Source: Octopus vulgaris
Lineage: Eukaryota
DNA: 64,000 nt
NCBI GenBank assembly: GCA_951406725.2
Contig: OX597825.1
Coordinates: 18,724,001-18,788,000, forward strand
Reading direction: 5' to 3'
The translations under genes and the position numbers were made by a program. The notes under the pieces are model-generated. The model saw only the letters and a list, made by a program, of their open reading frames with translations. It made no database searches and was not told where the DNA came from. Below are positions 14,956 through 63,130 of this stretch, piece after piece; position 1 is the stretch's first letter; each line of letters begins with the position of its first letter.

Positions 14956-15280
14956 CTGGCCTTCTGTCGGTTACGACGACAAAGGTTCCAGTTGATTCGA
15001 TAGACAAAAGAGCCTGCTCACGAAATTAACGTACAAGTGACAGAGCATCCCCCCGCACACACACACGTACCCTTAACGTAGTTCTCGGGGAGGTTCAGCG
15101 TGTTATCGAACGTGACAGTGCTGGCCCTTTGAAACGCGTTTACTACTCATGTTTGTCAGCTGAGTTGGAGCAACGTGAAATAAAGTGCCTTAATCAAGAA
15201 CACAGCCCGCCACCGAGAGTCGAACGCATGACCTCAATACCGTGAGCCAAGTACCCTTACGACTAAGCCATACGCATTTA
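14956..15280 (-). mobile_element. SINE with family-C head/CORE-like body and tail X
   Basis: Body GCACTTTATTTCACGTTGCTCCA as in the 59600 copy; tail CAAAGGGCCAGC...CCCCGAGAACTACGTTAAGGGTAC as in the 53023 copy. Confidence 0.75.
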
Positions 15281-15502
15281 CAGTTGAAGCTGTACTCGGT
15301 TTATCGACTTCTGAATTAGTTAAACATTCGCTGGCACGAATACTATGACGTATTCTATGCTATGAATTCTGCCAATTCACCGCTGAGGTCATGAGTTCGA
15401 TTCTCGGTAGCGCGCTCTGATCTTGATTAAGGCACTTTATTTCACGCTGCTCCAACTCAGCTGACAAACATGAGTAGTAAATGCGTTTCAAAGGGCCAGC
15501 AC
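15118..15502. repeat. 119-bp inverted repeat, about 93% identity, 147-nt spacer
   Basis: 15118-15236 versus the reverse complement of 15384-15502; 8 mismatches counted by hand. Confidence 0.9.
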
Positions 15503-15724
15503 TTAGAAGGGATATATTGCGAGGGAAAATTCCTAACGTGTACGATTTCCTTCGGCACCCGCCCGCAGTGGTTGAAATAAAGGTCACTTCTTGTATAGTT
15601 TTCAGCTCCGTAGCTTCGACGTATGCCTATACTTTTCGTGATTTAGGTATAAAGTGAGAACTGAATATGACGCTTTTTTTCCTTAGCTTCAAATGAACAC
15701 ACGTCTAGTAGATATATGATCAAA

Positions 15725-15956
15725 AGGCGGTAAGCTGGCAGAATCGTTAGCACGCCGGGCGAAATGCTTTCCAGTATTTCGTCCGCCGCTGTGTTCTAAG
15801 TTCAAATTCCGCCGAGGTCGACTTTGCCTTTGATCCTTTCGGGGTCGATAAATTAAGTACTAGTTACGCACTGGTGTCGATGTAATCGACTTAATACCTA
15901 TATCCGTCTTTGTTTGTCCCCTCTGTGTTCAGCCCCTTGTGGGTAATAAAGAAATA
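15725..15956 (+). mobile_element. full-length SINE family B (tail type 1) with 18-bp TSD
   Basis: AAGGCGGTAAGCTGGCAGAA head to GGGTAATAAAGAAA; TAGATATATGATCAAAAG on both sides (15709-15726 and 15955-15972). Confidence 0.92.
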
Positions 15957-16200
15957 GATATATGATCAAAAGTGTTGTGGTAGAATTTAATCGTTTTCAA
16001 GTACTTTTGTTCTTAAAGTCATGTTTCTCGCAGGCTGGCTACGGTCTCATGCCGTTGCTGTGATGTTAGAAACTTGGTGCGACACATCTTAGTATTTTAA
16101 TTGATTCAGTTTATGCTGTAATACCACTTTGAAGAATTTCGTCAAACAAATCGACCCGAGTACTTAATTTTTCCGGTCATTTTTCATAGCATTTTTTTCC

Positions 16201-16371
16201 GATGGCCGGATAACTGAAGAGATGGCAGCGTGGAGTTCCACCTCGGCATCCGAGACTCGGAGTCTTATCATGGCTACCGAATAATTATCACATATTACAT
16301 TTATAGATAAATTCCTCTATTTACATAATATCGAGGTTTCTTTCTTTCTTTTGTTATCTTACCATTTTTAT

Positions 16372-16376
<5 letters not shown>
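16201..16376 (+). mobile_element. short repeat with a type I hammerhead-ribozyme-like motif, ending at (TA)n
   Basis: GATAA-CTGAAGA-GATG...CATC-C-GAGA-CTCGGAG-TC-TTATC; the downstream ~100 bp is shared with 47299-47385. Confidence 0.65.
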
Positions 16377-16403
<27 letters not shown>

Positions 16404-16412
<9 letters not shown>

Positions 16413-17525
16413 TTGTAAAAATGAAGTTCGAAAATGCTGCTGTATTATACAATTTTTAATTTTTATATATACATTATAACATGTTTCAGTTCCTGAAATG
16501 AACCTTATCAAAAAAAGTTATATATAAAAAAAGACAGCTCATGCCGTCAAACACAAGAAATTCATTTATAATACACAACGGAGTCAGACATCTTAGAGTT
16601 CATGTATAGTTGATATATAGTTCATGTATAGTTGATATATAGTTTGAAGTATATGTTCAAAGTGTTCGTTGCAGTGGCCCACGGTGGCGATACGTATTCA
16701 ATACAAAAAACAGATCAAAGTGGTGGAAAGCGGTCAATACAGAAGATTGATGTTTCCGAAAGAGCGAGGAATTCATTTTTACCTTAAGCAATTGTGATGA
16801 CCCATGGTGGAAGTTCGCTGGGTGGTTCTAGTGAGTTTTTGTGAAGTGCTCGGTTTTATAATGCCTGTTAGGTGGTCAATCCAGCGTAGCGTGACGTCAT
16901 CAACGTTTTGACCAATCGTTTCGTTAGGTGGCTTTAGTCAAGTAGAACGGGACGTCATCATTATTTTCACCAATCGCTGCATTATAACTGCCTCTTGTTT
17001 GTTTCCTGTTTTGACCAGTCGCTTCGTTAGTCAAGTAGAACGGGACGTCATCATTATTTTGACCAATCGCTGCATTATAACTGCCTCTTGTTTGTTTCCT
17101 GTTTTGACCAGTCGCTACGTTAGTCAAGCAGAACGGGACGTCATCCAGATTCTGCCCAATCACGACTTATAGCTACATTAGATCTGCCCCCTGTCTGTAC
17201 TTGTTAGGTGACTAGTCAAGCAGAAAAGGACGTCATCAATATTCTGACTAATGACTGTCCCCTGTTTGTATCCTGTCCATTCTAGCAGAGCTAGACGTCA
17301 TCAACTTGTTGACCAATCAGAATCGGGTCTGACCCTTAGCTGTATCGTATGTATCAGGATCAGATTTGCACGAAAGAATTTTTTTCCTTTTTTTACTAAG
17401 GCATATTTCCGTCAGAGTGAGTGTCTGTTTGAAGTAGAGGCCGTGGTGGAATTTTGCTTCTCCTTTTCGGAGGACTTATCTTTTGTTTTAGTATTCCTGG
17501 CCCAGGGTGTTTAAACTTGGTCTAA
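16404..17525 (-). mobile_element. probable Penelope-like element 3' remnant with repeat array and terminal degenerate hammerhead motif
   Basis: Minus-strand peptide CLSKKRKKILSCK resembles the GIY-YIG C-terminus; TTGATAA-GGTTC..GAACT-GAAACATGTTA near the end; (TA)n on both sides. Confidence 0.45.
16892..17320. repeat. 93-bp-period minisatellite containing GACGTCATCA and CCAAT motifs
   Basis: Units start at 16937, 17030, 17123 and ~17215; explains the 31-aa repeat ORF at 16924-17163. Confidence 0.9.
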
Positions 17526-46756: not shown

Positions 46757-46794
<38 letters not shown>

Positions 46795-47159
46795 TTTAAA
46801 ATAAAGATGAAAAATTGAATATCAATTTGATTAATATCAATTTAAAACCAGTGATCTAGCACATAGAAAAATCTGAAGATCCATAAAAATTATATTACAT
46901 ATATATAAGAGGGAATAACCATTAAGTGGACATCCATTATGCTAGAAGTCGACCCCTCTGGTCTTTCCACTAAGAAAGGAATGTTCTCAAGAAAATATAG
47001 CAAACGCCAGAATGTAAGCCAGCAAGACAAATGAAAAGATACAAAATATACAGAACTATACACAAGACGTCCGCATGAGATTGAACATGCATATAGTTCT
47101 ACCAATTACATTTGGGGTTATATTTCAAAAGTCTTCGTCTTCGCGCACCAAAATATCTA

Positions 47160-47390
47160 TGTTCTCTAACCGGCAAAATTCACTGTAGAGAATTATGTCC
47201 GGGGCTGAAGTCTGCTCCGGCATCTCATAAGTTATTAAGACAAATGCCGGAGCATACTTCAGCCCCGGTATTCAAAACTCTGAGTTTTATTAAGACAACC
47301 AACTAATTGTCACATATCATATTTATATATAAATTCCTCTATTTCACATAATATCGAGGTCTCATTCATTCTTTTGTTGTCCTCTTATTA
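47160..47390 (+). mobile_element. second member of the hammerhead-like repeat family, with a 70-nt GC-rich hairpin
   Basis: CTGTAGA-GAAT...[25-bp stem 47199-47268]...ATTC-AAAA-CTCTGAG-TT; tail ATAAATTCCTCTATTT(C)ACATAATATCGAGGT shared with 16277-16375. Confidence 0.6.
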
Positions 47391-47853
47391 TTATTTTCCT
47401 TGTCCTGTCTTTTACTGTTTATATTTTGTACTGTCGTTACTGCCCTGTTTATGTTGCCATTTTTACCCCTCCGCAAAAGAATCTCGATCTTTATTTAATT
47501 TGCTTTTCGCGGGAAGAACTGTTTCAGACGAAGTCGCGTCCCGCCTTCACCTTGGAAAACGCGGAGTAGATGAAACCATGCCGACTGATGAAGAGGAATT
47601 TTCCTTCTGCTATTTGTCCTGTACTCTATTTTTTCGTTATTTAAGAAAAAATGTTCAGTTCCTTGGTTTTGTGTTTATGTTTTCGTTTCTCATTGGTTCG
47701 ACATTTTTTTTGGTGTCCTGTACCCATATATGCATGTATATATACATGTAGATGTATGTACGTACATATATGTATGTATATATGCATATGTTTTATTTAT
47801 TAATTTGTTATTACCTGACAGAACGCACGCATCCATTTCTAAGTAAGTTTGTT

Positions 47854-52816: not shown

Positions 52817-53325
52817 TTTGTGTTGTGACCCCTTTCGGTCATGAATGACCATGGGATTGCACCGAGAAAATTACCCACCGAGGCAGAAGTCCTGGCAAGG
52901 TTGTTTATGGAAGACCAGCAGTCTCCAATGCATACAAGCCTCCACTCTCTGCGCCACCGATGTTATTCAAGGGAAAGGAAAAAACCGATACAGCTTGGCA
53001 CCAGTGACGTCGCAGTTCATTTATTAACGTGCAAGTGACTGAGCACTCCACATACACGTGTACCCATAACATAATTCTCGGGGAGTTTCAGCGTGATACA
53101 GAGTTCGACAAGGCTGGCCCTTTGAAATACAGGTTCAACAAAACAAGAAGAAAAATTGAGAGAAAGTTGTGGTGAAAGAGTACAGCAGATTTACCACTAC
53201 CTCCTGACGGAGCCTCGTGGAGCTTTAGATGTTTTTGCTCAATAAACGCTCACAATCCGGTCTGGGAATCGAAAGCGCGATCCTACGACCGCAAATCTGC
53301 TGCCTTAACCACTGGGCCATTGCAC

Positions 53326-59991: not shown

Positions 59992-61465
59992 CAGCCTTGG
60001 CCAAAATTAAGTAGCAGGTATGAAAAAATACAGAATATGATTGAAACCCATATTCTAATTAGCTTTTTGAAAATATTTTTGCACCTTCCCTCTTGTACCT
60101 AAGTGTCACCACAAATGAAACCAGTACAATAAACATGCTAGATTCTATCCCATCAATAATTAGTGTTTGATGTGTCCTATTTTTGCTTTTATATCCCCTT
60201 TTATGCGATTTTCATACTTGAGACTACGTTGATGAATGTGGCTTGGTCAATGTTCTATCGTTATTTCTTATTCTTTCGTTGAATATATTATTGATAACTT
60301 ATCAGTGGTTAATAGTTCTTGTAAATATCTCCAAAATAATAGATTCCTAAGACACAAAGGTCTCAAATCTTTGCATTATCAAGTGAAGGATTCTCCCAAG
60401 TTGAAATTGCAAAAAGTTGAAATGCTCAAGAAAAGCTGTCCGTCAACAAGTACAATGAGACAAATTCTTTCAAAATTTGTAAAGGACGAGGTTGCAAAAA
60501 GTGTACAACCACAAGGGAAGACAGGTTGCAGCAGACATCTCTTGCGTATCAAAAATACCTCTTTTGACGTAGCTACTAAGTTTCGGGTTGCAACCAACAA
60601 GGATATATCAACTCACACATTGAGAAGATTATTAGAAGCTGGGCATAAAGGATGTAGGAAGTCGTTTCTGCCTGAGGTAAACATGAATAAGCGATTGGAC
60701 AAAAGATTATGGAGAATTGAACTGGCGATCATTGGCCTAAAGTTGTTTAATCTCATGAAAGTAACTTTGATGTAGGGTCTCTACATTTTTCAGATCTTTG
60801 GAACCACTGGAGCTGTTAATGTTCACCATAGAGTTGGAGAGGCTTGTCGTCCTGGATGTGTGGTCCCAGCAGTGAAATTTATATGGGGAAGAGTAATTTT
60901 GGGGTGCTGCATGTCGTCTTCAGGCCCAGGAATGTTGTTCACTTCCGAGGACAGAATGAATTCCAAAACTTACACCAGCATGTTAGATCAAGATTATCAA
61001 TCTTCCTTAGCTAAAATTTTCTCTGATAACATGCCAGGTGGCATAATAATTCAACGGGCCATTGCTCCATGTCACACATCCAGAAACTCATTGGCTTGGT
61101 GAGGAGAAATGGATGAGGGTAATGAACTGGCCCCTTCAGTCTCCAGACCTCAATCTCATTGAACATTTCTGGTGACACTTAGGTACAAGAATGAGGGTCC
61201 AAAAATGTTCTTCAACAAGCGAATTAGAAGCCAAAATTCAGGAACAGTGGCAGACAATCGGCGCGGTCACTTGCGCCAACTTTGTCTGAAGTATGCAAAA
61301 ACTTATAAAAGAGGTTATAAAAACAAAAGGAGGACGCATCAAATGCTAATTGTTGGTGAGATAGACTCTGTAATGTTTATTATATTGTTTTCAATCATTA
61401 AGTAAATGAGTTTCAATCATATTCTCTATTTTATCATACCTGTTCCATAATTTTGACAAACGCTG
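59992..61465 (+). mobile_element. full-length defective Tc1-family DNA transposon (about 1.47 kb)
   Basis: ~60-bp imperfect TIRs (CAGCCTTGGCCAAAATT... and ...AATTTTGACAAACGCTG), TA on both sides. Confidence 0.92.
60400..61350 (+). pseudogene. Tc1-like DDE transposase pseudogene
   Basis: Frameshifted motifs: TLRRLLEAG (HTH), SHESNF (for SDESKF), VVPAVKF..G, QRAIAPCHTS (for QDNAPCH), WPLQSPDLNLIEHFW, SMQKLIKEVIKTKGG. Confidence 0.9.
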
Positions 61466-62196: not shown

Positions 62197-63130
62197 GAGG
62201 ATATTCCACTTCGGGGGAAGGGCGCAAAATACATATATATTAGGAACTGGATATTGCCACAAAGTACCCGGTGAACGAGAGAGACAATAAGCTTTTGTAA
62301 TCCCATGTGTAATCGCTTGTGTAAGCTATGCCATGTCTATGTGGAAGACGTCACGCATGTGTAAGCTATGCCATGTCTCTGTGGAAGATGTCACGCATGT
62401 GTAAGGTATGCCATGTCTCTGTGGAAGACGTCACGCATGTGTAAGCTATGCCATGTTTCTGTGGAAGACGTCACGCATGTGATTAGCAGCTGTGCGAAAA
62501 TGTCGTCACGCTACTACCTCCCTATGTTGCACGATGTTGTTGCTAAAACAATTTACAATGACATACGGAAAAATGACTGTCCTGAAATAAACATAGAAAA
62601 CCCACTGCTATATAATACTTTCATGAGTACCAATTCAAGGCAAACTGGTGCATTATTTCCGTCAAAATGTCTGTCAAGTGTAAACATAACAGGCCGGATA
62701 TTGTTGTTTAGGACAAAGGGGCAAAAGTATGAACCATCACGGAGAACAGCTGCCCTACAGATATATATATATCTTTGAAAATCAAAGAAAATGAGGATAT
62801 CTATGGACAACTGCTTCAAAAACTAAATCACAACTATCAATTCATATACATACCAATAACAATTGGAGCAGTAAGTATTGTTAGTAAATGCTATTGTTAG
62901 TAAAGGAGAATCTGGATAAACTGGAATTTTCAGAAAGAGAAATCGACCGACTTATTCGCACATTACAAGTGCAATCTATGAGTGGAACAATAAGATTACG
63001 CAAGACTTTTCTCAAGTTCCAAATGTGAATTTCTCTGTGTTAACTACATCCCAAACCTGGAGCCTTGTATCTTTGTCGGAAACTGGTTTCCGCCTCGGTA
63101 GAAGATTTATAATAATTAAGAAATAGAATA
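62197..63130 (+). mobile_element. REL-endonuclease non-LTR retrotransposon 3' part (R4/Dong/NeSL-like), degenerate
   Basis: Peptides ELDIATKY, CKLCHVSVEDVTHVISSC (CCHC), YLPMLHDVVAK, KCKHNRPDIVV, ENSCP, IPITIGA and KTFLKF* in REL domain order. Confidence 0.85.
62319..62481 (+). repeat. 4 x 40-bp tandem repeat of the zinc-knuckle coding segment
   Basis: GTAAGCTATGCCATGTCT(A/C)TGTGGAAGACGTCACGCATGT at 62321, 62361, 62401 and 62441. Confidence 0.95.

Follow-up and report, generated by a model that had tools for sequence, protein, structure and literature searches.

A stretch of 64,000 nucleotides from Octopus vulgaris (contig OX597825.1, positions 18,724,001 to 18,788,000; hereafter the window, with positions counted from its first letter) consists of AT-rich, microsatellite-dense animal DNA, and raises the question of which kind of mobile element left behind a short repeat that carries an almost complete hammerhead ribozyme. 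An earlier note, made from the letters alone, had placed the repeat at 16201-16376 and viewed it as the mark of a ribozyme-bearing, non-autonomous retroelement family. A type I hammerhead is present in this repeat, referred to here as copy A, and is more than a chance occurrence. On balance, copy A is probably a decayed 3' end, likely truncated on its 5' side, of a Penelope-like retrotransposon (PLE) of the Hydra type. Its features, and those of a related copy B, are given in Table 1.

Table 1. Coordinates of the features of copies A and B in the window.
Feature	Coordinates	Strand	Evidence
Copy A, 200 bp, likely 5'-truncated 3' end of a Penelope-like element	16174..16373	+	depth, loose ends
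Copy A, hammerhead stem I, 5' strand	16200..16213	+	core 5 bp GATAA = 16209-13
Copy A, catalytic core C3-A9 CTGAAGA, intact	16214..16220	+	sequence; no alternative letter at or above 10% in 4 runs
Copy A, stem II: long imperfect helix with G10.1-C11.1 and a single bulged pyrimidine at 16250	16221..16251	+	
Copy A, G12-A15.1 box: GAGA (A14G) in copy A, GAAA in the family	16252..16255	+	16254 = A in 99.4-99.8% of depth
Copy A, stem III: odd 9-base palindrome ACTC-N-GAGT (here ACT-CGG-AGT), predicted to pair between two copies	16255..16263	+	folding energies
Copy A, cleavage triplet: GUC in copy A, GUU in the family; predicted cut after 16264	16262..16264	+	16264 = T in 98.6-99.6% of depth; GTT in copy B
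Copy A, stem I, 3' strand (TTATC = 16265-69)	16265..16279	+	pairing
Block best conserved between copies A and B, with the highest family depth	16308..16337	+	depth peak 16324-16351
(TA)n tract at the 3' end, likely insertion target	16374..16412	+	TRF; loose ends
Copy B, inverted 5' arm, with the 5' strand of stem I, a decayed core (C3-A9 has one change) and the 5' part of stem II	47199..47243	-	
Copy B, direct arm, related subfamily, with stem II, a GAAA box in decayed form, stem III, GTT, the 3' strand of stem I and the conserved tail	47244..47394	+	

All the pieces of the motif named in the earlier note sit in copy A at the coordinates that it gave. Stem I, which had been thought extendable, reaches 13 pairs between its two strands with one bulge (16270) and one mismatch, and its inner 5 bp have a mean pair probability of 0.90. 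No additional base separates A9 from G10.1. The long stem II is likewise present but is weaker in copy A than had been described, its 10 pairs being interrupted by 3 mismatches and, at 16250, a bulged C. The site is the sole match in the window to a relaxed type I descriptor, and also to a second, looser one; 2 of 200 dinucleotide-shuffled windows match the relaxed descriptor. The folding energy of copy A is ordinary (z-score -1.36). An Rfam search of the window gave no hammerhead match, a result that is uninformative because intact motifs of the same type at two unrelated loci, L004 and L011, also score under the cut-off (23.4 bits versus 34 and 21.8 versus 48.5).

The letters of the family were taken from assembled contigs of four of 24 public runs, X1, X2, X4 and X15 (7499, 6085, 4124 and 890 contigs, respectively), aligned to 15960-16373 at a likeness of at least 80%, a cut-off that favours contigs of the subfamily of copy A. 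X1, X2 and X4 are DNA-like or unlabelled, and X15 is RNA only by guess. Depth in the unique flank is 39.7 (X1), 58.5 and 4.88, and depth in the hammerhead region is 9,000 to 20,000 times higher, a summed contig depth that overcounts and does not amount to a copy number. The contigs of all four runs bear out the proposed ribozyme-bearing repeat family and show it to be high in copy number, probably with thousands of members.

The family majority differs from copy A at seven positions: 16227 (G, 91-93%), 16235 (T), 16254 (A), 16264 (T), 16287 (G), 16304 (C) and 16338 (C). G at 16227 restores one stem II pair. A at 16254 is found in all four runs, so the family has a GAAA box and A14G is private to copy A. 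The family therefore possesses both type I boxes, CUGANGA and GAAA, whereas copy A departs from them at A14. A14G is a published inactivating change that has been used as a non-cleaving control (PMC4889925), in keeping with the inactivation proposed earlier; judged from its letters, the copy A hammerhead is likely inactive, owing to A14G and to a stem II change that misfolds it. The GUC triplet that had been reported does end at 16264 but is again private to copy A, and the GUU of the family is a cleavable NUH triplet (PMC3138052). The private letters of copy A are those of the window itself, no identical contig among those listed spanning 16254, and the junction between copy A and its flank was found without differences in three of the four runs. 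No differing letter reaches 10% in the C3-A9 core, G10.1, C11.1 or the stem III arms, and no indel falls within the motif. The centre base of stem III (16259) varies between G and A, and several minor variants (8-25%) lie at CpG sites, as neutral decay would give. An AACGGT motif lies approximately 40 bases before the core in the family (16174-16179 and upstream family sequence) and also precedes the hammerhead in Hydra-1_oBim and Penelope-15_HM (PMC8557442).

Folding with the family majority letters raises the probability of the ATG/CAT pairs of stem II from 0.15 in copy A to 0.95. Stem III, however, stays unformed in the monomer even with these letters (probability 0.03), and ACTC-N-GAGT has a predicted energy of +2.1 kcal/mol as a hairpin versus -9.7 kcal/mol as a two-copy duplex. 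Three helices, an open-ended helix I and an NUH triplet are present, helix III only as a predicted duplex. Stem III is predicted by these folding models to follow the dimer design described for animal hammerheads, and minimal PLE hammerheads did not cleave as monomers and cleaved at a low level as dimers (PMC4209133). The ATG that opens stem II was considered as the start of an open reading frame (ORF) and rejected, its frame closing after 20 codons in copies A and B.

A related subfamily is represented in the window by copy B, whose inverted arm is identical to its direct arm at 24 of 25 positions and whose direct arm aligns to 16241-16371 with 79.5% identity over 132 bp (E 3e-27). The triplet of copy B is GTT, and T occupies both its palindrome centre and its stem II bulge. 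Between the two copies, one pair in stem I and one in stem II are changed on both sides and are still paired, and two mismatches of copy A are pairs in copy B; three stem II positions are unpaired in copy B. The stem covariation that had been set as a check is therefore seen with this second subfamily, although evidence from two copies is thin. Stem I of copy B is a perfect 12-bp helix, which the fold-back itself could have produced. Inverted head-to-head 5' copies are typical of PLE insertions (PMC8557442; PMC3846280), and copy B displays this head-to-head, inverted and 5'-truncated arrangement.

Copy B lies within a block of approximately 940 bp (46790-47730) between TA-rich tracts. Its inverted arm gives way after approximately 45 bases to unrelated sequence extending left as far as a (TA)n tract at 46790, and its direct arm continues in T-rich sequence beyond the position at which copy A ends. 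The block is possibly a chimeric head-to-head PLE insertion. An open frame of 155 codons (47284-47751) overlies copy B; neither Pfam nor Atlas gave a match to it, and it was taken as non-coding.

The boundaries of copy A were read from contig depth and loose ends. The repeat starts not at 16201, as had been supposed, but at approximately 16174, where loose ends of the family join upstream of 16174-16181. Loose ends before 16181 agree at 0.68 and 0.58, which indicates that upstream family members share sequence, and the joining of shared family sequence at this point suggests that copy A was cut short there. Depth climbs from the single-copy level in X1 to 4e5-2e6 across copy A. In X1 it passes from 6.9e3 (16170-83) through 5.3e4 (16184-97) to 3.9e5 (16198-211), and the pattern is alike in X2 and X4. 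The roughly tenfold rise at 16184-16211 suggests a single starting point for most copies, the behaviour of a short non-autonomous element. At the same place lies a T run whose length varies (indel at 16192), which can break alignments and contigs. Depth approximately doubles across the cut site (16254-16281).

The claim that the family ends at (TA)n holds, with (TA)n loose ends behind 16370 (16370-74) in all four runs and also behind 16309 in three of them, which places the 3' end 45 or about 110 bases from the cut site. The signature of (TA)n insertion is thus seen on the 3' side of copy A; its 5' flank is not (TA)n, and no target duplication is visible. Among the 15 joints listed, eight lead to the opposite strand, seven of them from 16193-16200; each is represented by a single contig in any one run, and the self-complementarity of stem I may account for those that end at 16265-16281. 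No listed joint leads from the 3' end of the element to its own 5' end, and a joint from 16354 to 16137, present in two runs, leads into a different flanking repeat. TRF finds no tandem array at copy A, and copies A and B are both solo in the window. An intron acceptor precedes helix I in Penelope of D. virilis. The pyrimidines and AG at 16189 are less likely to be such an acceptor should the motif belong to a Hydra-type 3' UTR.

Several other repeats occur in the window. An imperfect inverted repeat of 387 bp (15117-15503), with arms 76% alike and partial copies at 53023, 59666 and 28968, may be MITE-like or may consist of two SINE parts in opposite orientation. The sequence at 15716-15967 belongs to an abundant SINE-like repeat, present many times across the window and presumably an octopus SINE. 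A minisatellite at 16877-17318 alternates 45- and 48-bp units (93-bp period) and is rich in CCAAT-like and GACGTCA motifs. The 3' fragment of a LINE ORF2 at 43226-43843 matches zf-RVT (E 1.9e-08) and adjoins an (ATCT)n tract. Two consecutive frames at 60236-61102 resemble, by eye, a broken Tc1/mariner transposase and have no Pfam match at 0.001, and a frame at 62314-62778, which carries a 40-bp tandem duplication and has no Pfam match, looks like the cysteine-histidine terminus of a LINE ORF.

The Hydra-type reading of the tail is drawn from the type of stem III, U17, the (TA)n end and the distance to the 3' end, all of which agree with the published Hydra clade. Of 459 stop-to-stop frames of at least 55 codons in the window, 247 are non-simple; the 150 longest of these were compared with Pfam and contained no reverse transcriptase (RT) or GIY-YIG remnant linked to the repeat, and the only Pfam match among them, zf-RVT, lies 27 kb from copy A. 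The Hydra-clade ORF (RT and C-terminal GIY-YIG, with DKT, RWK and a CxCX5C linker and no CCHH) was likewise absent from the scanned frames, and truncated copies would lack it. We infer Hydra-clade membership from the anatomy of the hammerhead and the ends.

Four other explanations were weighed. That the motif is a chance match in AT-rich repeat DNA might be argued from the Rfam result and the ordinary folding energy, but so few shuffled windows match, the compensatory changes in copy B preserve the pairing and the family majority has a full consensus core; the family letters refute this explanation, which we regard as having practically no likelihood. The repeat could instead be a single monomer from a non-LTR retrozyme, in which the hammerheads of a tandem repeat excise a circularising unit. 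Retrozymes have type I hammerheads, occur in molluscs and are known as solo monomers (PMC7229834; bioRxiv 10.64898/2026.07.22.740005), and the doubling of depth across the cut site would suit them, although that step can stem from B-type subfamilies that align only downstream. Tandem units of 170-400 bases, each with a hammerhead, were not found at the two window loci, where both copies are solo and TRF shows no array at copy A; none of the listed joints is of the 3'-to-own-5' kind, and copies end at (TA)n and begin upstream of stem I rather than at the cut site. A retrozyme origin is accordingly improbable. A tail from a PLE of another clade (Neptune, Nematis or Penelope/Poseidon) appears similarly doubtful. 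These clades also carry hammerheads, often with U17 (24 of 56 rows, PMC4209133), Neptune is linked to microsatellites, and an ATG opens stem II as in PAc of Anolis (PMC11167929); in most of them, however, stem III is incomplete and A9 is followed by an additional base that the octopus motif does not have, and the stem II frame closes early in both copies.

The remaining explanation, which is the reading of the earlier note minus the tandem arrays, is a short (approximately 180-base) non-autonomous derivative of a Hydra-type PLE tail, transcribed and copied as one unit by a full-length partner's enzyme. The stepwise climb in depth at 16170-16211 in X1, X2 and X4, the start of fold-back joints at 16193-16200 and the lack of an ORF in the window all agree with such a derivative. 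Some members, however, continue upstream of 16174 with shared sequence, the depth rise falls on the variable T run that can break alignments, and a truncation hot spot yields the same depth profile. We consider it a possibility of some substance but rather unlikely. The designations "non-autonomous" and "retrozyme" were not retained: copy A is solo, with neither a tandem array nor a head-to-tail joint of its own, the family runs upstream of 16174, and 5'-truncated tails of Hydra-clade PLEs fit the anatomy at least as well.

If copy A is the truncated tail of a Hydra-type PLE, the RT-endonuclease of the element would nick a (TA)n tract and copy the element RNA from its 3' end. Copying would stop early, often just 5' of stem I, leaving truncated copies, and would sometimes fold back to produce head-to-head copies such as 47199-47394. 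In an active element, RNA cleavage by the hammerhead would fall after GUU, approximately 110 bases before the 3' end. Since stem III is not predicted to fold in the monomer, two motifs would have to pair by way of their palindromic stem III before any cleavage, in a tandem transcript or with the help of protein. The (TA)n priming, the dimer cleavage and the inactivity of copy A are what we infer from ends, folding and letters. A more far-reaching idea, to which we attach little probability, is that the cephalopod harbours thousands of short, separately mobilised derivatives of Hydra-type PLE tails whose hammerheads, with a GUU site, a bulged stem II and an odd palindromic stem III, cut only as dimers, intact copies on separate host transcripts pairing in trans by way of stem III and cleaving one another; if true, these would constitute a dispersed, concentration-dependent RNA cleavage system and not inert tails.

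Pattern scans for a like architecture returned 25 metagenome and 3 viral loci, and a blastn comparison of these 28 loci found none similar to copies A or B. Most lack a stem I, apart from L004 and L011, which are unrelated type I hammerheads with an identical stem III. L004 (1909-2022) and L011 (895-1010) each hold a head-to-head pair of intact type I hammerheads with stem III ACTC-A-GAGT, one with GUC and one with GUU, that resemble the published Hydra-2_aMil motif (PMC8557442). Three short motifs of the octopus family were not found in the supplement of the same paper, in which line breaks may hide matches. No description of the family was found in the literature on octopus and cephalopod hammerheads and Penelope elements, a search with Repbase and Dfam outside its scope. 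The main texts of octopus repeat surveys report Penelope expansions and leave ribozymes unmentioned (PMC13282606, PMC8967140), and the family may already be annotated in Repbase, Dfam or the curated Octopus vulgaris repeat library (PMC13282606). The occurrence of hammerheads in PLE tails is widespread and already in print, also for an Octopus Hydra element, and copy A alone adds little; the family contributes a highly abundant case that combines a GUU site with a stem III of clear dimer type, and it can serve in the annotation of short repeats of no known class and as material for the question of what PLE hammerheads do.

Compared with known systems, the repeat resembles non-LTR retrozymes, for which a PLE origin has been proposed (PMC7229834; bioRxiv 10.64898/2026.07.22.740005), in being short and non-coding with a type I hammerhead, but it has no tandem unit and its ends are set by (TA)n, not by the cut site. 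PAc, a Poseidon element of Anolis (Frangieh et al. 2024, PMC11167929), shares the ATG at stem II's beginning, as well as more than one 3' end past the hammerhead; its hammerhead needs protein and is dispensable for insertion in vitro, and the octopus frame, unlike that of PAc, closes after 20 codons. The minimal hammerheads that Cervera and de la Pena (2014, PMC4209133) described in PLE pseudo-LTRs are alike in their long helix II, G10.1-C11.1 and palindromic helix III, and also in their predicted action as dimers, mostly dispersed single copies, opposite-strand pairs and U-rich flanks, whereas the octopus motif has no extra base between 9 and 10.1 and a full 9-base stem III. None of the 56 animal motifs in that compilation is from a cephalopod, and in the PDF text of its Fig. 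S3 the Hydra magnipapillata row stands alone in having an odd 9-base stem III. U17 occurs in 24 of these 56 motifs by our count and in 10 of 25 Hydra-clade families, and the GUU site was consequently rejected as a novelty.

The closest agreement is with the Hydra clade, in whose hammerhead table (26 rows, 25 families; Craig et al. 2021, PMC8557442 File S2; counts made here) stem III is 9 bases long in 19 of the 25 families, a perfect 4+1+4 palindrome in 16 and exactly ACTC-N-GAGT in 5, with C17 in 4. (TA)n is preferred by 26 of 27 Hydra families, and the Hydra consensus sequences that were compared have the motif in the 3' UTR, approximately 35-100 bases before the end (PMC8557442). The octopus repeat shares with these PLEs a type I fold in the 3' tail, U17, the (TA)n end and a similar distance to the 3' end, and it has the canonical hammerhead near the 3' end with a long palindromic stem III that characterises the clade. 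It differs in the greater length of stem I (13 pairs) and of stem II (13 positions), in the bulged pyrimidine beside G10.1-C11.1 in both subfamilies and in having no linked ORF. Hydra-1_oBim, from Octopus bimaculoides, is alike in the core and first stem II bases, U17 and the 4+1+4 stem III, and unlike, in a comparison made only by eye, in its stems and tail beyond the core (PMC8557442). Stem III of Hydra-2_aMil and Penelope-16_HM agrees letter for letter with that of the octopus repeat (PMC8557442).
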